NCBI GenBank assembly: GCA_046483495.1
Contig: JAWODC010000055.1
Location: 1-10,864 of the forward strand
Direction of reading: 5' to 3'
Source of the DNA: Desulfobacterales bacterium
GTDB lineage: Bacteria; Desulfobacterota; Desulfobacteria; Desulfobacterales; UBA5616
DNA length: 10,864 nt
The notes beneath the pieces were generated by a model. That model searched no databases, had not been told where the DNA came from, and saw only the letters and a program-made list of their open reading frames with translations. Positions 1-10,864 of this stretch are shown here, piece by piece. Position 1 is the first letter of the stretch. Each line of letters opens with the position of its first letter. Position numbers and translations under genes: made by a program.

Positions 1-166
1 AACAGCTCACACAATGCCTTGCTCCCACAAAGTCCGCCAGCGCCTTTTCAAATTCCTGCACCTCGGGACCCATGATGTACTTGCCGTGCTGCAGCACATC
101 TTGAATTCTTTTGTCTATCTGGTCTTTGATCCTTTTCTGTTGGGCGGATAAGTCTATGAATTGCAT
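1..166 (-). CDS. DegT/DnrJ/EryC1/StrS family PLP-dependent sugar aminotransferase (WbpE-like), N-terminal part, truncated by window edge
   Basis: Not in the ORF track. Manual translation from ATG at 166 gives MQFIDLSAQQKRIKDQIDKRIQDVLQHGKYIMGPEVQEFEKALADFVGARHCVSC, which carries the family N-terminal motifs FIDL and G.YI.GPEV..FE..LA. An SD-like AAAGGAAG lies upstream. Confidence 0.93.
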   Translation of the reverse strand, partial: MQFIDLSAQQKRIKDQIDKRIQDVLQHGKYIMGPEVQEFEKALADFVGARHCVSC

Positions 167-252
167 ATTTCTTCCTTTCTTGTCCTCTGTCACCACGAAG
201 GTTTTAAAAACCAAAAAAAACAAAAAATTCACCACGAAGTTAATCCGTGCAA

Positions 253-258
253 AGTCAA
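253..258 (-). promoter_or_regulatory. -35 half (TTGACT) of circle-junction promoter; the -10 half (TATGAG) is at 2006-2001
   Basis: Joining the IS ends through one CTT gives TTGACT-ttgcacggattaacttg(17 nt)-TATGAG, pointing into the putative bridge RNA and transposase. Confidence 0.7.
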
Positions 259-332
259 GTAAAAAATTTATGTATAATCGGGTTTACCAAGGTTTACCCA
301 GCATATATTGCTCTTTGAAAATTCGGTAAAGG

Positions 333-1733
333 CTATACTTTAGCAAGCACATCTGATAATATGGAGCCTATGTGGGCGGGGGCTGAGATCCCGCGCTTAG
401 TGTCGTTAACACTTTGGGACTGCTCCCGCTCCACTCTTTTCTTGCGTTGCCGCCTGGATACCGGGGCAGCGGGATTGTAGTCTTTAAAACGACGTTCTTT
501 TCTTTCCCTCCCGGTCGCTGCTATGGCCTGTAGCAGGCGCTCTCTGTTAGCCCTGTCGATTTTTGGATCGAACGCGGTGTTATTCTTCAGCATTCCAAAA
601 ACAATCCTAAGAATTTTGTGCATGCAAATACCGATAGCATCCATTTTTTTTCTTCCCTGATGGATATGGTATTCGTACAAAGGCTTAATAACGGGATTTT
701 TATGGATAGCCGATAGAGCAACGTTAAATAGAATCTTGCGGGGAGCCTTGCGGCCTTGTTTGCTCATTTTGTAACCGCCGCTGCCGTCTCCACTGATTTT
801 ATAGACCGGATGCACTCCCCAGAACGAGGCGAGCTTTTTAACGCTTTTAAAGCGCGCTACCGACTCCATTTCGAGGATCAAACCGATTGCCGATTTGTCG
901 CCGATGCCTACAAACGTTTTCAGCAGTTCGACTTCGGGCAGATCGCAAGCACTGATCATCAGTTCGTTCTGGGCGGCAATCGTTTTTTTAAGATGCAAGA
1001 TCTGTTTGGCTGTGGCGCTGACCAGCTGACTGCTCACCTCATCGGTGCCAGAGGCCACTGAACGCTTTGCGTTGGCTATCAGCTGCTGTGCGCGCTGCAT
1101 TGTGATATAGGGGATCCTGACCAACGTTTTGGCGCGGGCTCTTTTCACCTGCCTTGCTGTAGGGTAATCGGTCAGCAGCCTTAACAGCCAGTCCGGCAGA
1201 CCGTCCTGGCAAAAAGACAGCAACTCCGGATGGGCCGTATATAAAAGACTGTTGAGTTGGTTTCGAAATTGGGTGCTTTGCTTGGTCAACATTTCGATAA
1301 AGCCCCATTGCTTTCGAAGCGAGGCCATGGGGTCGTGGTGCTGATAGGTCACCTTTTCCGGGTGCGCCACCAGGTACTCGGCAATATTTTGCGCACTGAT
1401 TTTATCGGTTGTGTTGCGCTTTAGATCCGCTTTGCTGTTATGGGCTACGCCCAATGGATTTAAACGAGCGGTTTTGATGTTCAACGAGGCCTGGAATCGG
1501 GTCAATGCATTGTACCAGTTGTTTTCGTACCCGCCGGTGCTTTCCATGGCCGCATGCAGGGTCGCTTTTGGATGGCGGTTTAAGAATTCCTGTAAAATGC
1601 CGTGCAACCGGTTGTGCGAGTCAAACGTATCGTCGAGTTGAAAGCTGTCGATCATGGGTTGTTTTTTCTGGTTGATGATCACGAAATCCGCGTACCCTTT
1701 ACTTACATCGATACCGAGGTAGAATGATTCCAT
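333..1733 (-). CDS. IS110 family transposase/recombinase (DEDD_Tnp_IS110 + Transposase_20 domains), 466 aa
   Basis: Motifs are GIDVSK (D9), MESTGGY (E64), LNP, TDKISA (D110) and the C-terminal ASFWGVHP...ISG (S314)...MSKQG...RKILF. A strong SD AGGAGG lies at 1742-1747. Confidence 0.96.
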   Translation of the reverse strand: MESFYLGIDVSKGYADFVIINQKKQPMIDSFQLDDTFDSHNRLHGILQEFLNRHPKATLHAAMESTGGYENNWYNALTRFQASLNIKTARLNPLGVAHNSKADLKRNTTDKISAQNIAEYLVAHPEKVTYQHHDPMASLRKQWGFIEMLTKQSTQFRNQLNSLLYTAHPELLSFCQDGLPDWLLRLLTDYPTARQVKRARAKTLVRIPYITMQRAQQLIANAKRSVASGTDEVSSQLVSATAKQILHLKKTIAAQNELMISACDLPEVELLKTFVGIGDKSAIGLILEMESVARFKSVKKLASFWGVHPVYKISGDGSGGYKMSKQGRKAPRKILFNVALSAIHKNPVIKPLYEYHIHQGRKKMDAIGICMHKILRIVFGMLKNNTAFDPKIDRANRERLLQAIAATGRERKERRFKDYNPAAPVSRRQRKKRVEREQSQSVNDTKRGISAPAHIGSILSDVLAKV

Positions 1734-1761
1734 TGAGCGGTCCTCCTTTTTCAGTCAAATG

Positions 1762-1994
1762 GGAGCCAGGTAACATCAGCCTTGTAAATATGCGGTGTCA
1801 TGCACCAGGTTAATCCCCGATTTTACCCTGGCGGTTGGAAGAAACTTCGTGACGGGTTCGAGACCCACTACACGACCCTTCTCAACTCCAGGCTATAGAC
1901 TTTGCCGAAAAAAGAAAACCCAGAAATTTTTTACATTTCGGTGTGGGGGGGACACCCCCCACACCCCCCGTTAAAAATAATTTTTTATGTTTGA
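1762..1994 (-). ncRNA. Putative bridge RNA of the IS110 element (ends approximate)
   Basis: Two stem/internal-loop/hairpin modules. Target loop 1834-1886 has guides UCGUG(U) (1875-1870) and CACGAAG (1851-1845). Donor loop 1765-1832 has guides GGAUUAAC (1816-1809) and UACAAG (1786-1781). A 5' hairpin lies at 1940-1965. The 5' end is inferred from the junction promoter. Confidence 0.85.
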
Positions 1995-2008
1995 ACTTTA
2001 CTCATACA

Positions 2009-2172
2009 AGCACGAAGAACACGAAGATTTTTTTGCTTCCAGCAAAAAAGGTGGGCCGGCGCAAGCGGGCCACCCGCCGCAGCGATCAGCCAAGGCGGAA
2101 TTGTTATGATTCGTTTTGATTCGTGGACAATTTCTTCCTTATCGTGAGCGCAGCGAACGATCAGAAACCAAT
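2009..2172 (+). repeat. Repeat A copy 1 (about 165 bp, multi-hairpin), split from its 5' end (228-239) by the IS110
   Basis: Aligns with 6039-6204 with about 7 differences by eye. Confidence 0.92.
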
Positions 2173-2523: not shown

Positions 2524-4155
2524 ATGATAACTTCTACACAAACCAGTGCACAAGCCCTCGCGAATGTAAAAGAAATCGACGAAAACGAATTCGTAATGAA
2601 CGCCACCCTCCGAATCTGCTCCAGCCTGGACCCGGATATCGCGCTGGAAAATCTTCTGTTATATTTGAAAGATTATATTCCGGTCGCCGGCATTCACCTG
2701 GGGCATATCGACGCCATTGCAAACGGGTTTCGCTTCCCGGCATGGGCCACCATCAACAACACCAAGCGCCCGAAGCCGTTCGTCAAGATTCCAAAGCATT
2801 TGAGGGAGCGCGTTTACCGTTTCTGGGAAATGAAGAACCGGTTCGAAGTCATCAACTATGATGACATCAAAAGCCCCCAGCTCAAGGAAATCGTCGAACT
2901 GGCCTGGCCGATGACCTCGAGGCTCACCATGAGACTGGACATGAACGGGCAGCGCATCGGAGCCCTGGGCCTTTTCATGCAGGGGAAGGACCGCTTCACG
3001 GACCGCCATCTCCGATTAGTGCTCAAGCTGCATGACCCCATCGCCATGGCCATGTCGAACGCACTGAAGTACCAGGAGATCAAAAAGCTGAAGGAAGATA
3101 TCACGGATGACAACCGCTATCTCAGGGAACAACTATTCAAAATTTCAGGCGATGAGATTGTCGGGAGCCATTCCGGCTTAAGGCAGGTGGTTCGCAAAAT
3201 CGAGCAGGTGGCCCGGTTGGACACGCCGGTTCTGCTGCTGGGGGAGACCGGGGTGGGAAAGGAAGTCATCGCCAATACGCTTCACAAGGCGTCCACGAGA
3301 AAAGACGGCCCTTTCATCAAGGTGAACTGCGGGGCGATACCGGATTCGCTGATCGACAGCGAACTGTTCGGCTATGAAAAGGGGGCGTTCACCGGGGCGG
3401 TGACGCAAAAACGGGGAAGGTTCGAGCAGGCGCACAACGGCACCATTTTTTTAGATGAAATCGGGGAGCTTACCACCTCTGCACAGGTTCGATTGCTGCG
3501 GATACTCGAAAACATGGAGATCGTCCGCGTGGGCGGCGGCGTTCCCATCAAGGTCAATATCCGGGTGATCAGCGCCACGAACAAGGACCTGGAAGAAATG
3601 GTGGCCACGGGGGCGTTTCGGGAGGATTTGTACTTTCGTTTGAACGTATTTCCCATCGTGATTCCGCCGCTCAGGCAGCGGAAAAACGACATACCGCTGT
3701 TGATCAATTACTTCATCAAGAAAAAGCGCATCGAGCTGAATATCGGCAAGAACATCAAACCGGCGCCGGATATGTTCGAAACACTCAGGGACTACAGCTG
3801 GCCCGGAAATGTCCGGGAGCTTGAAAACCTTGTCGAACGCTCGCTGATCGAGGCCAACGGGAATCCGGCGTCGGAATACCTCCACTTGATACCCTCCGGC
3901 AAAAAAAACGGCAGGACCGGCGGCGGCCGGCTGTTCGTGGAACATAAGATCCTCAGCCTGGACGAGGCCGTCAGGCGCCACATCGAGGCCGCCATGGCGG
4001 CGGCGTGCGGAAAAGTCGAAGGGGCAGGCGGTGCTGCGGAGCTGCTCGATGTCCACCCGAGCACGCTTCGGGCGAAAATGCGGAAGCTGGGGATTCCTCA
4101 TGGGCGCGTAAAAAATCGGACAGGGTCTGCTTTTTTGGTGAACAGTGAACAGTGA
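2524..4155 (+). CDS. Sigma54-dependent transcriptional activator (GAF-like + AAA+ + Fis-type HTH; FhlA/NifA-like architecture)
   Basis: Motifs are Walker A GETGVGKE, SELFGYEKGAFTGA, FLDEIGEL, FREDLYFRLNV, WPGNVREL and the C-terminal GAAELL...STLRAKMRKLGI. SD AGGAG lies at 2509-2513. Confidence 0.95.
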   Translation: MITSTQTSAQALANVKEIDENEFVMNATLRICSSLDPDIALENLLLYLKDYIPVAGIHLGHIDAIANGFRFPAWATINNTKRPKPFVKIPKHLRERVYRFWEMKNRFEVINYDDIKSPQLKEIVELAWPMTSRLTMRLDMNGQRIGALGLFMQGKDRFTDRHLRLVLKLHDPIAMAMSNALKYQEIKKLKEDITDDNRYLREQLFKISGDEIVGSHSGLRQVVRKIEQVARLDTPVLLLGETGVGKEVIANTLHKASTRKDGPFIKVNCGAIPDSLIDSELFGYEKGAFTGAVTQKRGRFEQAHNGTIFLDEIGELTTSAQVRLLRILENMEIVRVGGGVPIKVNIRVISATNKDLEEMVATGAFREDLYFRLNVFPIVIPPLRQRKNDIPLLINYFIKKKRIELNIGKNIKPAPDMFETLRDYSWPGNVRELENLVERSLIEANGNPASEYLHLIPSGKKNGRTGGGRLFVEHKILSLDEAVRRHIEAAMAAACGKVEGAGGAAELLDVHPSTLRAKMRKLGIPHGRVKNRTGSAFLVNSEQ

Positions 4156-4341
4156 ACAGTGAACGGGCCAGTGGATTGGTTCTATTTTATAAAAAACATT
4201 TTAGACCCTGATGAAAACAAAAAGACGGGTTTCACAGGGTAAACACGGATTGCACTGTTTAAAAAATTACATCGGATCGGTGCTTTATTGTATGTTTCAC
4301 CATGTTTTTATCTCACTACGAATATTACAAGAAGTACGAAT
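4138..4341 (+). repeat. Repeat C copy, starting with four GTGAAC(A) units
   Basis: Near-identical to 8018-8214, with a few substitutions and one extra heptamer. Confidence 0.95.
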
Positions 4342-4499: not shown

Positions 4500-4720
4500 C
4501 CTTTCTATCATTTCTCGACAGGCATGCAGACCTGTCTGCCATCACTGTCATCGCTATCGGAGCAGGACACGATATCCCGGTTTCCAGAGATCGTAACCCG
4601 GTTTACACAGACAAGGACTTGCCCGGTGATCATCGGATCGGTTCCATGTTACCGGGCCAATGGACCATTCGAAATTCGACGAAACCTTTTTTCATGCAGC
4701 AACCCATCGGGAGGTGCACC

Positions 4721-5779
4721 ATGGCTGACAATGTTTACAAACGGCTCAGGGAATTTTTAGACCGGCTGCCGGCAGGGTTTCCGGAAACCCCGGACGGCGT
4801 TGAAATCAAGCTGCTGAAAAAGATGTTTACGCCGGAACAGGCCGAATTGGTTATGAACCTGACGAGCACGCCGGAAACGGTTGCCGAAATCGCATCCCGG
4901 ACGGGTATGGACGAGCGCCGGCTGGCCGAACAGCTCGAGCAGATGTGCAAGGACGGCCTGATCTTCCGCGTCCGGGAGGGAGATACCCCGAAGTACCAGG
5001 CATTCCAGTTCCTCATCGGCTTGTATGAATTTCAGGTCAACCGTCTGGACAGGGAGTTCTGCGAACTGTTCGAAGCGTACATGCCCCACATCGGGTTGTC
5101 CATGGCGTCTCTGCCCAAACAGTTGAGGGTGGTTCCCGTGGAATCATCCCTTGCGGGTTATCCCGAGGTGGCCCCGTACAACCGGATTCGTGAAATGGTC
5201 GACAAAGAAGAGGTCATCTCTGTCACCGATTGCATCTGCAAAAAGGAACAGGGCATCTTAGGCAATCCCTGCTCCAAACCCATGGAGGTCTGCATAATGT
5301 TCGGCGATTGGGCCCGGTTTTATGTAGAGAACGGCAATGCCAGGCAGATCGACGGGGCCGAGGCCGACAAGATTCTCGATCTGGCCGAAGAAAACGGCCT
5401 GGTGCTGCAAATCGGTAACTCCCAGGACATGCTGGCGATATGCTGCTGCTGCGCCTGCTGCTGTCCGGGGCTCAAAAACATCAAGCTTTTTCCGAATCCC
5501 GGCGAACTGGTGATGTCCTATTACCGCTCTGTTATTGACGGCGAACTGTGCACCGGGTGCGGTGAGTGCATCGAGATCTGCCCCATGGACGCCATTGAAG
5601 ACAAAGACGGCATTTCGTTGGTGTCGGACCCAAGGTGCATCGGATGCGGGTTGTGCGTCAACCGCTGTCCGGTGGAAGCCATCGCTCTTGTAGAACGCGG
5701 GGATAAAACCGACGCACCGCCCCGGACCTTTCAAGACCTCACGGACAGCATCGCCGCCCAACGGGGGGTGCAACCGTAA
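4721..5779 (+). CDS. 4Fe-4S dicluster (ferredoxin-like) protein with N-terminal winged-helix-like region, 352 aa
   Basis: Two CxxCxxCxxxCP motifs (CTGCGECIEICP, CIGCGLCVNRCP), an extra Cys cluster CIC...C...C, and ICCCCACCC. The start is placed at ATG 4721 because of GGAGGT at 4710-4715. Confidence 0.9.
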   Translation: MADNVYKRLREFLDRLPAGFPETPDGVEIKLLKKMFTPEQAELVMNLTSTPETVAEIASRTGMDERRLAEQLEQMCKDGLIFRVREGDTPKYQAFQFLIGLYEFQVNRLDREFCELFEAYMPHIGLSMASLPKQLRVVPVESSLAGYPEVAPYNRIREMVDKEEVISVTDCICKKEQGILGNPCSKPMEVCIMFGDWARFYVENGNARQIDGAEADKILDLAEENGLVLQIGNSQDMLAICCCCACCCPGLKNIKLFPNPGELVMSYYRSVIDGELCTGCGECIEICPMDAIEDKDGISLVSDPRCIGCGLCVNRCPVEAIALVERGDKTDAPPRTFQDLTDSIAAQRGVQP

Positions 5780-5955
5780 ATTGAAGGAAAGGAGAAAAGC
5801 CGAATGCCACCCGCCGGAAGATCCCATGTGTTTGTCCGAACGGCCGCCGGGGACCTTCGCCCCGTTGGGCAGTAGGAACAGGGACGTTCTTAACATTTAA
5901 ACTTTTACCTTCGTTGGGTTCTACAGCGATAGAAGACGAACCCTGCTCACTCCAA

Positions 5956-6012
5956 ATCGGGATCGGGATCGGGATCGAAAATCAAAATAGAAAATTCGAT
6001 CCCGATCCTGAT
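5956..6012. repeat. Hexamer-based hairpin (ATCGGG)n...(CCCGAT)n
   Basis: 5962-5979 pairs with 5995-6012 over 18 bp with one G-T pair. Confidence 0.85.
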
Positions 6013-6026
6013 GAAACGCGTTTTTT

Positions 6027-6204
6027 TTCACCACGAAGAGCACAAAGAACACGAAGATTTTTTTTGCTTCCAGCAAAAAAGGTGGGCCGGCGCAATCGGG
6101 CCACCCGCCGCAGCGATCAGCCAAGGCGGAATTGTTATTATTCGTTTTGATTCGTGGACGATTTCTTCCTGATCGTGAGCGCAGCGAACGATCAGACAAC
6201 CAAT
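6027..6204 (+). repeat. Repeat A copy 2 (uninterrupted)
   Basis: Begins TTCACCACGAAGAGCACAAAGAACACGAAG and continues as in 2009-2172. Its head is inverted relative to 6322-6349. Confidence 0.92.
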
Positions 6205-6403
6205 ACCTTTCTGCTTATCGCACACCAATTACAGGTCCGAACCAAATCAGGCCCCGGATAGATTTTATTTCGATTAATTTCATTTAACACGAAGGTGTGT
6301 TAACAATTATTTTTTCGTTTTTCTTCGTGCTCTTCGTGCTTCGTGGTGAGATAAAAAATAAAGAACCGATCCCTAAAAGTTTAAATGTTAAGAACGTCCC
6401 TTT

Positions 6404-7690
6404 TTACCTCTGCGGCGGTTTCAGCATCAGGGAAAACACGACCCCCAGGAACAGTGTCAGGGATAAACACAAAAACACCAGGTTGTAATCGCCGGTTCGC
6501 TCGGCAATGTAGCCGCCCGCCACCGGAACCACCGCAGCGAATATAATCAGGATCGGCCCGATAACAGCACCGATATTAGCGAAGGCATCCGGGCCGAAAT
6601 AATTGCCGATCATGACCGATAGGATGACTATCAGGCTGCCGAAGCAGAATCCGAACACCGGGGCTGTGACCATAAGCCAAGTGATACTCCCGGCGCTCCA
6701 AATGCCCAGGAATGTGATGAACAACAGAAGCATGGATGTAAAAATGATCCAGCGGGGCTCTATCCGGTCACCGATCCAGCCGATGGAAAATCGGGCAACT
6801 CCGCTGGCAAATATCAGAATGCTCAGAAAAGTTGCGGACTGCATCTGGGTATATCCCTTGTCCATTAAATGAAGAACGCCATGGGATATGACCAGGACTA
6901 TGGCCATCGTATACGTGCCCCCGACGATCACGGTGCACCAAAGCACCGGTTTTTTGATAATGTCGCGCAAGCCCCAGATTTCTGCGGTTCTGTAGGTTCG
7001 AGCAGATTTTTTCAGGACGTTGGCACGCTCCGTATCGTTCGGGTTTATCCCGTCCGGGTGCTGCCCTACATCGGATGGTTTGTTTTTCAGCCGGAATGAA
7101 ATCATCATCGCCAGGATGCTGAAGGCGGCCGCGGCAAGCCAGGCTATTCTCCAGGACTGAACCCGATTCATCATAAACGTGAAAAGCGGTTGAGCTACAA
7201 ATCCCCCCATGGCGCCGGCCGACATCACAATGCCGAGAACCGTGGCCCGCTTCACGTTAAACCAATGCATGACCGTTGTCTGAACCGGCAGCAGACCGGT
7301 GAATCCATTTCCGACGGCAATAAAAACCCCCCATATGAGAATCCATTGCCATATTTCATTCACTTTAATTCCGAGAAGGAGAAGACCGGTGATCATAAAT
7401 GCCAGTCCGACATGTATGGTTTTCTTGGCGCCGATTTTGTTGATGGAGACGGCGATAACAGGCGACAGAAAGCCGGTCAGCACGGCATTCAAGCTGTATG
7501 CAATCGAGGCTTGTCCCCGTCCCCATCGCATATCCAGGATCATCTCAGGGAAGATGACCGCGTAACCCAAATTCACGATCCCCATCAGCGCAAAAATCGT
7601 AAACAAGATGCCGGTGTTGATCCAACCATAGAATGGGCGGGTTTCCCGGGCGGGAATAATCATGGCGCCACCTGTATTTAAGAGTGACAA
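6404..7690 (-). CDS. MFS transporter (OFA/monocarboxylate-porter-like; substrate unknown)
   Basis: About 12 hydrophobic segments, N-terminal FYGW, WF.vKRAT.LG, and GWIGDRIEPR (an MFS motif A-like loop). The start could be TTG 7690 or ATG 7663. Confidence 0.92.
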   Translation of the reverse strand: MSLLNTGGAMIIPARETRPFYGWINTGILFTIFALMGIVNLGYAVIFPEMILDMRWGRGQASIAYSLNAVLTGFLSPVIAVSINKIGAKKTIHVGLAFMITGLLLLGIKVNEIWQWILIWGVFIAVGNGFTGLLPVQTTVMHWFNVKRATVLGIVMSAGAMGGFVAQPLFTFMMNRVQSWRIAWLAAAAFSILAMMISFRLKNKPSDVGQHPDGINPNDTERANVLKKSARTYRTAEIWGLRDIIKKPVLWCTVIVGGTYTMAIVLVISHGVLHLMDKGYTQMQSATFLSILIFASGVARFSIGWIGDRIEPRWIIFTSMLLLFITFLGIWSAGSITWLMVTAPVFGFCFGSLIVILSVMIGNYFGPDAFANIGAVIGPILIIFAAVVPVAGGYIAERTGDYNLVFLCLSLTLFLGVVFSLMLKPPQR

Positions 7691-8000: not shown

Positions 8001-8214
8001 AATCCGTGTATAAAAAAGTGAACAGTGAACAGTGAACGGGCCAGTGGATTGGTTCTATTTTATAAAAAACATTTCAGACCCTGATGAAAACAAAAAGACG
8101 GGTTTCACAGGGTAAACACGGATTTCACTGTTTAAAAAATTACATCGGATCGGTGCTCTATTGTATGTTTCACCATGTTTTTATCTCACTACGAATATTA
8201 CGAGAAGTACGAAT
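8001..8214 (+). repeat. Repeat C copy with three GTGAAC(A) units
   Basis: Near-identical to 4138-4341. The 5' part AATCCGTGTATAAAAAA is shared with the copy starting at 10788. Confidence 0.95.
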
Positions 8215-8324
8215 GGTTTTTATTTTTCTTCGTGTCCTTCGTGCTCCTCATGGTTTTTAAAACAATCTTTTGGTTGTCATACGATTCAGCGAACATGATT
8301 CGCCGCCGCCGATAAACCGCCCCG

Positions 8325-8348: not shown

Positions 8349-8387
8349 GTTTAGTGCAGCTTTTTAAAACAGAACCGATCCCTACCA

Positions 8388-8457
8388 AACCCATCACCCC
8401 TCACCCATAACCTATAACCCCTCACCCATAACCTGTTCTTTTACTGTTCACTGTTCA
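8388..8457. repeat. Heptamer arrays: about 7 units of (A/C)ACC(C/T)(A/C)T followed by (CTGTTCA)x2
   Basis: Reads aacccat cacccct cacccat aacctat aacccct cacccat aacctgt, then ctgttca ctgttca overlapping the ligase stop codon. Confidence 0.85.
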
Positions 8458-10742
8458 CCCTTTTTAACCAAATACCGAACAACCCGCCCCCGCAACTCCA
8501 AATCCTCAACCGGCAAAATCCCCAAAACAACCCCATGATCCCCAAAATACCCCGAAACAAAGTCCACACACCGCTTCCACCGGTAAGGCCGCAGCGCCAG
8601 ATACCGCCGAAACAGCCCCTGGAACTTCGCAATTCCCGCCTCCCGCGTCAGCGCCGCAGAACCGCCGGCGGCAGCCTCCTCCGGCAGCAGCCCGGCCCGC
8701 CACACCCAGTACCGCGAGGCCCCGGCAAGGATCGTCCCGTCCCTGGGCGACAAAAAAACGGCCGTGTCGTGGCATTCGTCCGCCAACGGAATCCACACCC
8801 TCAGGTACCGGTACAGGTCGTCGTCCCGGCTGCGGCACGCCGCGGCCAGGGCGTGCCAGTACTTGCCGCGGGCCGGGTTGTTCATCACCGCTGTCTTCAG
8901 CAAGGATACCGCCGCATCGGCATCACCGCCCGATCCCTGCGCCGCCTGCAGGTGATGAACAGCCAGCCGGTACGGGTATTCGGCATTCAGTGGGTTGCGG
9001 GCCATGGCCCGCTCGATGTCCGCCGGCGCAAGGTCCCGGTTGAGGTTGAACGTCGAGTTCTTCTCCGTGGCGCACGCCGCCTCGGCCGCCCAGTGGGCGC
9101 CGGCCGCCCACATCAGCGCACCTGCGCCGGCGATGACGGCCAGGCACACTGCAGGTTTGATCCGCTTCGGCAGCGGCACGCGCGCCGTGCGGTAGAAAAA
9201 CGTCACGCCGTAACCGTGGCCCCGGTGGTGCAGAGCGACAAACCCCAGGCCCAGCACAACGGCCAATGTCAAGGGGTTGGCCGGTGTGTGCATGTTGAAG
9301 TCGACAAGGCTGTGCAGTCCGATGGCGACCATCGCGGCCAATGCGCCGGCCGTGACGCCCACCGCATAGGCGTTGCGCCGCCGCCGCCAGACCCGCGCCA
9401 TCCGGACGAACAGCACGAAAAACGCCGCAAGCATAAGGGCCAGGCCCGGCAGCCCCAACTCGGTGCCCGCCTCCAGCCAGTCGTTGTGGGGATTGCCGTT
9501 GTAGTAGTCGGCCGCCCGGCCGCCGGGCTCGTACTGCGCAAACAGGTCCGGGTTATTGCCCCACCCCACCCCGGTGACCGGGTAGTCCATCAGCATGGGA
9601 ATCAGGCTCCTGGACAGCGCGATCCGGCCGTTCAGCCCCTGGGTCTTTTCGAATTTCTCCAGGGTGGGATCGATGCCCACGGACAGCCCGTACACGAAGG
9701 TGAACAGACAGAAGGCCAGCGACATCAGCCCGATTCCGGCCTGCTTTTTCCGGGAGAGGAAAAGCCCGGCCATCACGAGCATGGCCATACTGATCGACAG
9801 GATGCCGCCCCGGGAGGCGGACAGGAGCAGGGCCACGCCCATGACCACGGCTGCGGCGACAAAGACGATCTTCAGCGGCGCCGCCGATTCGGGCGAAAAC
9901 CGCCCCAGCAGCCGCTGAAACCGGGCCCGGGCTCCGCCCAATCCGGCTTCCATGCGGGTGGTCTTTTTCTTCAGGGTCAGCACGTATCCCCAGGCCATGC
10001 ACAGGGTCATTTCCATGTAGCCGGCGAAGTGGTTGGAGCCGATGAAGGTGCCGGAGGCGTAACGCCCTCCCCCGGCTCGGCTTTGCCACCACAGGACCCT
10101 GGGTGAGAGGGAAAACACCTGGGAGACGGCATACAGGGCCTCGAAGAGGCCCATGGCGATGACGGCCAGGAGGAGGATGTCCATTCGGCGTTTGGTGTTG
10201 ACGGTGTTCAGGACGAGGAAGAACAGGGTCAGGTAGGCCAGGAGTTTGAGTGCTTGCCTTAGGGTGCCGTGAACGTTGTGGGTTATAGGTGATGGTTTAT
10301 GGGTTATGGGGGAGGGGTTTGACTGTGAACGGTGAACAGTGAACAGTGAACGGTTGGTGGATGGGGAACCGTTGGGGCTTTCAGCTTTGAGATTCGAGTT
10401 TTCGACTTCGTTTATTTTTTCGACAATCGCGGCGGCATGGGACTTGAGGGCGGCCGTGTTCGGGGAAATCGCTTCCATCCACGAGAGCGGCATGGGAACG
10501 AGCTGCAGGGCGATGATCGCCGGGATGCCGGCGAGCAGCAGCCCGATCGGGGTCTTTACCCAGGTGAATTCCTTTTTTCCCTTTTCGCAGATTTTGCCGA
10601 GGGCGTATAGGGCCGCCAGGGCGAATATGACGATCTCCACGAAACTGTACGCCCAGACGTGCACTGCTCCGAAAGCGAGCGGGGCGAACATGATGAGGAA
10701 TATTATGCCGGCGAATACTGTTTTTTCTGTGATTTTTGCCAT
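8448..10742 (-). CDS. O-antigen ligase/Wzy_C family membrane protein with C-terminal TPR-like region, 764 aa
   Basis: Multiple TM segments with motifs GTFIGSNHFAGY, SASRGG, PVTGVGWGN, PHNDWLE...ELGLPG and HSLVDFNMHTPAN. The helical tail includes NPLNAEYPYRLA and NPARGKYWHALA. Confidence 0.9.
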   Translation of the reverse strand: MAKITEKTVFAGIIFLIMFAPLAFGAVHVWAYSFVEIVIFALAALYALGKICEKGKKEFTWVKTPIGLLLAGIPAIIALQLVPMPLSWMEAISPNTAALKSHAAAIVEKINEVENSNLKAESPNGSPSTNRSLFTVHRSQSNPSPITHKPSPITHNVHGTLRQALKLLAYLTLFFLVLNTVNTKRRMDILLLAVIAMGLFEALYAVSQVFSLSPRVLWWQSRAGGGRYASGTFIGSNHFAGYMEMTLCMAWGYVLTLKKKTTRMEAGLGGARARFQRLLGRFSPESAAPLKIVFVAAAVVMGVALLLSASRGGILSISMAMLVMAGLFLSRKKQAGIGLMSLAFCLFTFVYGLSVGIDPTLEKFEKTQGLNGRIALSRSLIPMLMDYPVTGVGWGNNPDLFAQYEPGGRAADYYNGNPHNDWLEAGTELGLPGLALMLAAFFVLFVRMARVWRRRRNAYAVGVTAGALAAMVAIGLHSLVDFNMHTPANPLTLAVVLGLGFVALHHRGHGYGVTFFYRTARVPLPKRIKPAVCLAVIAGAGALMWAAGAHWAAEAACATEKNSTFNLNRDLAPADIERAMARNPLNAEYPYRLAVHHLQAAQGSGGDADAAVSLLKTAVMNNPARGKYWHALAAACRSRDDDLYRYLRVWIPLADECHDTAVFLSPRDGTILAGASRYWVWRAGLLPEEAAAGGSAALTREAGIAKFQGLFRRYLALRPYRWKRCVDFVSGYFGDHGVVLGILPVEDLELRGRVVRYLVKKGEQ
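10279..10351. repeat. Heptamer arrays inside the ligase-like CDS, in frame
   Basis: (TTATGGG)-type units at 10279-10320 and four GTGAAC(A/G) units at 10325-10351, translated as RSLFTVHRSQSNPSPITHKPSPITH. Confidence 0.85.
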
Positions 10743-10787: not shown

Positions 10788-10864
10788 AATCCGTGTATAA
10801 AAAAAGTGAACAGTGAACAGTGAACAGTGAACGGGCCAGTGGATTGGTTCTATTTTAGAAAAAA
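10788..10864 (+). repeat. Repeat C, third direct copy, truncated by window edge
   Basis: AATCCGTGTATAAAAAAA, four GTGAAC(A) units, then GGGCCAGTGGATTGGTTCTATTTTA. Confidence 0.92.

Follow-up and report, generated by a model that had tools for sequence, protein, structure and literature searches.

The window analyzed in this work is a complete contig (C89; 10,864 nt) from the genome of a Desulfobacterales bacterium (G000; 4.19 Mb in 94 contigs). Near its start, an insertion sequence (IS) of the IS110 group lies between two CT dinucleotides inside an array of short CTTCGTG units. We consider it very likely that a predicted bridge RNA steered the element into this dispersed array, and that intergenic arrays of this kind serve it as a multicopy landing site. 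An initial annotation of the window had proposed such a landing site, and the proposal is borne out by predicted guides that match the target and by agreement with element ends found on a second contig of the genome (C6) and in a related genome (G356). The same annotation had set the target apart from the repetitive extragenic palindromes (REPs) that IS621 uses, and it is indeed a CTTCGTG tandem array rather than a GTAG-type REP palindrome. The boundaries and cores of the element, its family, guide-like segments at both junctions and reuse of the array by a relative are evident at the level of sequence.

Architecture of the element and its recombinase

240..2008, minus strand: IS110-group insertion sequence between two CT cores, 1769 bp; the same right terminus occurs on C6.
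238..239, minus strand: CT core of the right-end junction, between left donor GGATTAA (246-240) and right target TCGTG (237-233).
2009..2010, minus strand: CT core of the left-end junction, between left target (2017-2011) and right donor TGTAT (2008-2004).
253..258, minus strand: TTGACT, -35 box of a predicted circle-junction promoter, present in 60 of 62 elements.
2001..2006, minus strand: TATGAG, -10 box of the predicted circle-junction promoter; a hexamer starting with TA is found here in 62 of 62 elements, with T at position 6 in 54.
333..1733, minus strand: IS110 recombinase, 466 aa, with D9, E64, D110, S113 (at the position of IS621 D105) and S314-G315.

Read on the transposase strand, the left junction is CTTCGTG/CT/TGTAT (2017-2004) and the right junction GGATTAA/CT/TCGTG (246-233). 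The CT core stands at both junctions and as a single copy in empty sites. The left end spans 275 nt and the right end just 93 nt; this short right end, and the prediction of an RNA in the left end, depart from the traits of the IS1111 group, and no long subterminal inverted repeats occur among the 25 longest inverted pairs listed for the window. By analogy with IS621, the element ends may join into a circle. TTGACT lies 17 nt from the TA-start hexamer across the joined ends in 60 of 62 elements (at the level of motifs), an arrangement to which a simple promoter scan of the window is blind. The resulting junction promoter, TTGACT-17-TATGAG, would drive the bridge RNA, and the recombinase would then join donor GGATTAA-CT-TGTAT to the target at CT, as in IS621.

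The recombinase carries domains PF01548 and PF02371 and passes the NF033542 cut-off for IS110. All 114 rows of our alignment have D9, E64, D110 and S314-G315. In its structure model (pLDDT 84, pTM 0.59), additional helices separate the coiled coil from the Tnp domain. Additional acidic residues, E70, D16 and D35, are invariant across the clade.

Target arrays, flanks and related insertions

6322..6349, plus strand: empty 7-nt-spaced target array, core at 6339-6340.
5878..6204, plus strand: intact copy 2 of composite repeat A; its head (6027-6056) is a 9-nt-spaced array, inverted relative to 6322-6349, with a core at 6038-6037 on the minus strand.
8228..8254, plus strand: further 9-nt-spaced array, among the best predicted left-guide matches (6/7).
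2011..2165, plus strand: two array units and the composite repeat A body, which make up the left-target half of the used site, 97% identical to 6059-6196; empty allele in read run X2.
228..237, minus strand: terminal unit of a target array, on the right-target side; beyond it, upstream of a DegT-type gene, the sequence is not repeat A.

The strings at 228-239 and 2011-2027 read as first described: joined, they match the reverse complement of 6322-6349 at 27 of 28 positions, and 6339-6340, the proposed empty-site core, reads CT. The 7-nt-spaced target 12-mer has five matches in the genome, far above chance, and all five extend to a 15-mer. Arrays of at least two chained CTTCGTG units number 26 in G000, compared with 7 and 3 in two shuffles, so that a few may be chance. 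Most have three units, at intervals of 9 and 9 or of 9 and then 7, with GGT closing the array; six of the 26 are 7-nt arrays. They are concentrated on about a dozen contigs, and by a crude test none lies inside an ATG-started open reading frame (ORF) of at least 120 aa. On these counts, the family is dispersed, intergenic and low-copy in G000. The one congener examined lacks an exact 9-nt array of the pattern tried.

Besides the full element, the assembly holds a 78-nt right-end fragment near the end of C6, and the two right ends have identical termini and agree over the first 10 flank bases. Different termini or unrelated flanks at other copies had been named in advance as an outcome contrary to array targeting; the C6 end and the ends in G356 instead agree. 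The description of the element as splitting repeat A, by comparison, has to be given up. Window positions 1-245, upstream of a DegT-type gene that is interrupted by the contig start, have no other BLAST match in the genome and hence are not the repeat A head. That head is found in the C6 flank, which over 157 nt shows 99% identity with a copy of repeat A on contig C91 that is intact and empty; the body of the C91 copy is 96% like the right flank of the window.

A 248-nt contig from read run X2, which we took as one record from two listings of equal length and depth with abutting coordinates, follows C6:14989-15076 without difference and then window 2008-2170 with one difference. At 2072 and 2078 it sides with the window against C91, and it looks like an empty allele of the site split at 2011. 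In the reads, X2 joins the C6-type head to the right flank, and no listed contig spans 239. Read evidence here consists of low-depth contigs, and small shares in runs X3-X5 were not used as evidence.

The two flanks in the window probably come from two different insertions that were collapsed into one during assembly or brought together when copies recombined. It is improbable, at roughly one chance in several, that there was a single true insertion, in which case the flanks would have been neighbors within a mosaic repeat and the end on C6 would belong to a separate, truncated copy. The modular arrays with their varied flanks would suit such an event, as would the brevity of the C6 fragment, which gives way to 116 unrelated bases. 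Against it, both intact repeat A copies (on C91 and copy 2 in the window) pair the body with a C6-type head, the X2 contig joins such a head to a body with the variants of the window rather than those of C91, and in run X1 other sequence stands before the 116-nt tail, suggestive of a chimeric tip of the contig or of a deletion specific to the strain. The tail (C6:15155-15270; L162:856-971) is unique and coding-like, and on C6 it is joined to the truncated IS end.

G356 was picked out by searching the junction pattern over 401 genomes of the order, and its recombinase is 68% identical to that of the window; 9 of the 14 order-wide matches outside G000 were chance, with no IS sequence after them. 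With an IS-internal pattern, eight of eight right ends in G356 are followed by CT-TCGTGGTGA, all in arrays. With a core-plus-end pattern, five of five true left ends are preceded by CTTCGTG-TC or CTTCGTG-CC, and the left guide matches the flank exactly or by one wobble. Two of ten right-end and one of six left-end pattern matches were chance and were dropped; the IS-internal pattern returned the same eight right ends. G356 has 61 empty arrays, of which 60 are spaced 9 nt and one 7 nt, and many form inverted pairs about 60-170 nt apart. A further genome, G061, carries three identical copies, one in a 9-nt array, one in an 8-nt array and one at a non-array partial match, and these show both register flexibility and imperfect specificity. 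No close DNA copy of the element was found in 61 related genomes, and its left-end 22-mer had no match in viral contigs.

Predicted bridge RNA and guide registers

1765..1890, minus strand: predicted bridge RNA, target loop then donor loop, from a consensus fold of left ends; limits approximate.
1867..1877, minus strand: predicted left-target-guide loop, with TCGTG at 1875-1871; tracks flanks in relatives.
1843..1851, minus strand: predicted right-target guide CACGAAG (1851-1845) and handshake TT (1844-1843).
1809..1816, minus strand: predicted left-donor guide GGATTAAC, matching 246-239; varies with the right end in relatives.
1779..1786, minus strand: predicted right-donor guide TACAAG (1786-1781) and handshake GC (1780-1779).

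An alignment of 24 left ends yielded two stem-closed internal loops with 30 pairs, 10 of which show double changes. The two loops emerge only from the alignment: folded singly, the window RNA is no better than shuffles (z-score 0.05), and an Rfam scan of the window returned no family. A G/C-run hairpin at 1938-1970, in the left end upstream of the predicted RNA, is found in many but not all relatives.

Guide comparisons drew on loci encoding relatives, 40 from genomes and the best 80 of 156 from metagenomes; the target loop was parsed in 104 of 121 rows, and the 17 unparsed rows are outside all guide counts. Right junctions were located from the donor guide, not the target guide. At 68 of 83 distinct sites the predicted right guide agrees with all five bases that follow the core (5/5), with 13 further sites at 4/5 and 2 at 2/5 (mean 4.77 of 5; shuffled 1.93, maximum 2.41). 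The left guide tracks its flank in two registers one base apart (3.61 versus 2.14 shuffled, and 3.02 versus 2.06); of 82 sites, 54 fit the first register best, 24 the second and 4 a third. Pairing between a donor-loop handshake base and target position 7 is possible at 73 of 82 sites, and handshake pairing of this sort is reported for IS621 (PMC11208158). Retargeting is frequent, because the 39 guide words require 54 changes on the protein tree. Array-type guides, a class set after seeing the data, sit in arrays in 26 of 36 cases, compared with 4 of 33 for other guides.

Tandem arrays of 7-9-nt spacing account for 30 of 69 distinct two-flank sites, versus 3.8 when shuffled; 21 are spaced 8 and 8 are spaced 9. 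Eleven relatives share the right guide of the window, and of the ten with a left flank, eight occupy TCGTG-NN-CT 9-nt sites and none a 7-nt site. The 9-nt spacing is the clade's normal target for this word. This bears on the head of repeat A copy 2, where an extra AG and one substitution had been expected to break the guide match: both differences are present, and the match persists at four bases and one wobble. Taken in the register of its closest relatives, the left guide of the window fits eight 9-nt array sites of G000 at 6/7. The empty site at 6339-6340 has the same form as the used one and is not the best predicted site. From these sequence matches, the used site is best described as a slipped-register or right-half-dominated insertion. 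The right guide, with seven exact bases, probably dominates. The left guide is loose and can take different registers, so that a single scaffold can likely be used on arrays of 8-nt or 9-nt spacing and, in the window, of 7-nt spacing.

Alternative readings, GxxExxY genes and known systems

A number of observations weigh against RNA-guided use of the arrays as we describe it. The window is the sole 7-nt site among the 69; its left guide fits the used site poorly (two bases and two wobbles, or 5/7 after a 2-nt slip), the 2-nt-slipped register is not enriched across the family (1.46 versus 1.41), and its handshake base is among the 9 of 82 that do not pair. Only one left junction is present in the G000 assembly, and no circle junction was found in the low-depth read contigs, which is not evidence of absence. 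The guide shuffles ignore relatedness, the pattern by which G356 was found itself contains the repeat, and array-type guides account for 51 of the 104 parsed elements against 53 with other guide words, under the class set after the fact. Of the GxxExxY genes, discussed below, only one of three in G356 has such arrays in a pattern scan, and TIGR04256 has no match in G000 (96.7% complete) or in its one congener. Finally, the position of IS621 D105, with which S113 is in gap-free register in the sequence alignment, is Ser in 113 of 114 rows and in 120 of 120 further database homologs, and mutation of D105 is reported to abolish IS621 recombination (PMC11208158). D-x-x-S also occurs in five rows of a published IS110 alignment, which rules out DEDS as unique to the clade. 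As far as these alignments go, the change of the fourth catalytic residue to Ser is one that occurs naturally, and the eight identical right ends in G356 and three identical copies in G061 indicate that the Ser-bearing enzymes are apparently active.

The poor fit at the left junction raises the possibility that this particular element reads the right half alone: TCGTG(G) and the core would suffice, the left guide would be idle, and arrays would be hit since they are rich in the word. We hold this to be improbable, at roughly one chance in several. The sole left junction does fit both left guide and handshake poorly, a better 9-nt junction (6/7) only 7 nt away was left unused, and one matching arm is reported to be enough for IS621 in vitro (10.64898/2026.08.31.748434). 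However, G000 contains 398 CTTCGTG sites, 97 of them followed by G, yet both right junctions precede the array tail GGTGAA and the left junction lies in an array. TCGTG is present in the predicted left loop, relatives track the left guide, and the matches in G356 are exact or by wobble.

Somewhat less likely still, sequence matching may be insufficient, with insertion gated by foldable inverted array pairs, DNA structure or a repeat-bound protein. The inverted arms at 6021-6057 and 6322-6358 and the many inverted array pairs of G356 would accord with gating, for which ISPpu10 offers a precedent (10.64898/2026.03.19.712850). Moreover, all eight right ends in G356 and both in G000 use the terminal unit before GGTGA, which extends beyond a 7-8-nt guide. 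This tail preference may instead reflect a U-G wobble at the eighth guide base together with a conserved repeat end; in addition, locus L054 used an internal unit and the L003 copy lies outside any array. As for entry into a 9-nt "CT CT" site with loss of 2 bp, which would make 7-nt arrays scars, we regard it as very improbable: the nearest relatives are all in 9-nt sites and 7-nt arrays are rare in G356 but not in G000, whereas C91 and run X2 both hold repeat A copies that are 7-nt-spaced and empty, and IS621 chemistry, as reported, cuts beside one core and predicts no 2-bp loss (PMC11208158).

The arrays also occur beside genes for GxxExxY proteins, orphan nucleases matched by TIGR04256 in 38 of 61 related genomes searched. 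Taking the best locus from each of 30 genomes, guide words were found as tandem arrays within 200 nt of a GxxExxY gene at 16 of 30 loci, versus 2 of 30 distant windows (placed 1 kb away, with 8 of these controls shorter) and 0.5 when shuffled. Loci L138, L152 and L208 carry the CTTCGTG form, with inverted arms in L138 and L152, and one G356 GxxExxY gene stands between two hairpin units whose arms are those used by the G356 IS. By its sequence context, the CTTCGTG array is an arm motif found on either side of GxxExxY genes, and it is also present where the gene is missing. The IS likely parasitizes this repeat system, as IS621 does REPs. The protein is uncharacterized, and the literature searched describes no activity of it on arrays; nor did we find these arrays named as IS110 targets, or the flanks of GxxExxY genes described, in a search that covered literature outside subscription. 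In G356, one GxxExxY gene in C106:4841-13761 is surrounded by a dense run of inverted array pairs whose members lie about 160-170 nt apart.

A broader account, which we put forward tentatively and rate at a little under even, is that a large, mainly Desulfobacterota IS110 clade (466 aa, DEDS, 7-nt right guide, sliding left guide) has been repeatedly reprogrammed onto the repeats of small nucleases. About half of its members would use GxxExxY arms and a sister branch would use NTS/Ssn repeats; the left register would track word and spacing, and the window would represent a rare 2-nt slip. If true, the clade would provide a natural map of bridge RNA register tolerance and independent evidence for GxxExxY arrays as a real and widespread repeat system.

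Loci L018 and L101 insert at a CTCCTACAGG site. This site presumably resembles a GTAG-type REP end; the clade would then also cover IS621-like targets. In the sister branch, loci L012, L013, L014, L035 and L172 (from G062 and one other genome) target the NTS/dRS3 hairpin cut by Ssn nucleases, and the L014 site, once rebuilt, agrees with the NTS consensus as published (PMC11893778); we found no mention of IS110 in that paper.

Landing of IS110 elements in intergenic repeats is established for IS621, ISPpu9, ISPpu10, ISPa11 and ISRm19 (PMC1525189, PMC11187229, PMC11208160). The closest point of comparison is IS621 of E. coli, which targets REPs (PMC11208160, PMC11208158). As reported, it shares with the element described here RuvC-like and Tnp domains, the catalytic Ser-Gly, the CT core, right donor TGTAT, a long left end with a two-loop bridge RNA, a junction promoter, handshake bases and an intergenic repeat target. 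IS621 recombinase is about 326 aa, however, versus 466 aa here, the difference comprising an added helical segment around residues 170-260 and a tail at the C terminus. The present element also differs in having Ser at the D105 position, a right guide of 7 nt (4 in IS621) and left donor GGATTAA, and its clade in having two left-guide registers and a tandem word array as target instead of the REP hairpin. For ISPpu9, ISPpu10, ISPa11 and ISRm19, all or nearly all copies reportedly sit at one point of a multicopy intergenic repeat (PMC1525189), like the eight right ends of G356. Compared with these REP-targeting IS110s, the repeat family here is a different one, low-copy (26 arrays in G000, 61 in G356) and tied to GxxExxY rather than to RAYT transposases.

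Targets listed for IS621-like orthologues in the Durrant 2024 supplement include arrays of the same kind (target_seq540-547, 1862-1864, 2323). Array targeting looks convergent, because these orthologues carry another bridge-RNA scaffold, unlike that of this clade. The readable parts of the supplement gave no matches to the GYENNW marker or the clade donor junction, and we did not find the arrays named in the main text. REP/RAYT and NTS-SRM/Ssn systems (PMC11893778) likewise combine a small gene for DNA processing with flanking repeats of its own, and these repeats are also found alone and act as IS landing sites, although the GxxExxY protein, unlike theirs, is uncharacterized. Further literature for comparison includes 10.64898/2026.08.14.744561, 10.1101/2025.10.25.684509, 10.1101/2024.06.21.599552 and 10.64898/2026.10.21.760802.

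The strategy of landing in repeats is already known, and our finding leaves the known IS110 mechanism unchanged; the new parts are the target family, the link to GxxExxY arms and the register flexibility. The work adds a repeat family, which we have not found named as a target, to the safe landing sites of RNA-guided IS110 elements, and ties the CTTCGTG arrays to an orphan nuclease. For the engineering of bridge recombinases, it offers natural cases of a long right guide, a multi-register left guide and Ser at the fourth catalytic position.

The other genes of the window are ordinary and parted by repeat blocks: the start of the DegT-type aminotransferase gene (2-166), a sigma-54 activator (2524-4155), a 4Fe-4S protein (4619-5779) and an MFS transporter (6404-7690). 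Further composite intergenic repeats, made of GTGAACA 7-mers and a 200-nt unit in direct and inverted orientation, occur at 4138-4341, 8014-8214, 2285-2392, 10325-10353 and 10806-10864, and many contig ends of G000 fall in such repeats. One repeat block (10275-10353), with GTGAACA and CCCATAA-type words, lies in frame within an O-antigen-ligase-like ORF (8448-10742), and its inverted counterpart (8374-8466) is placed at the end of the same gene.

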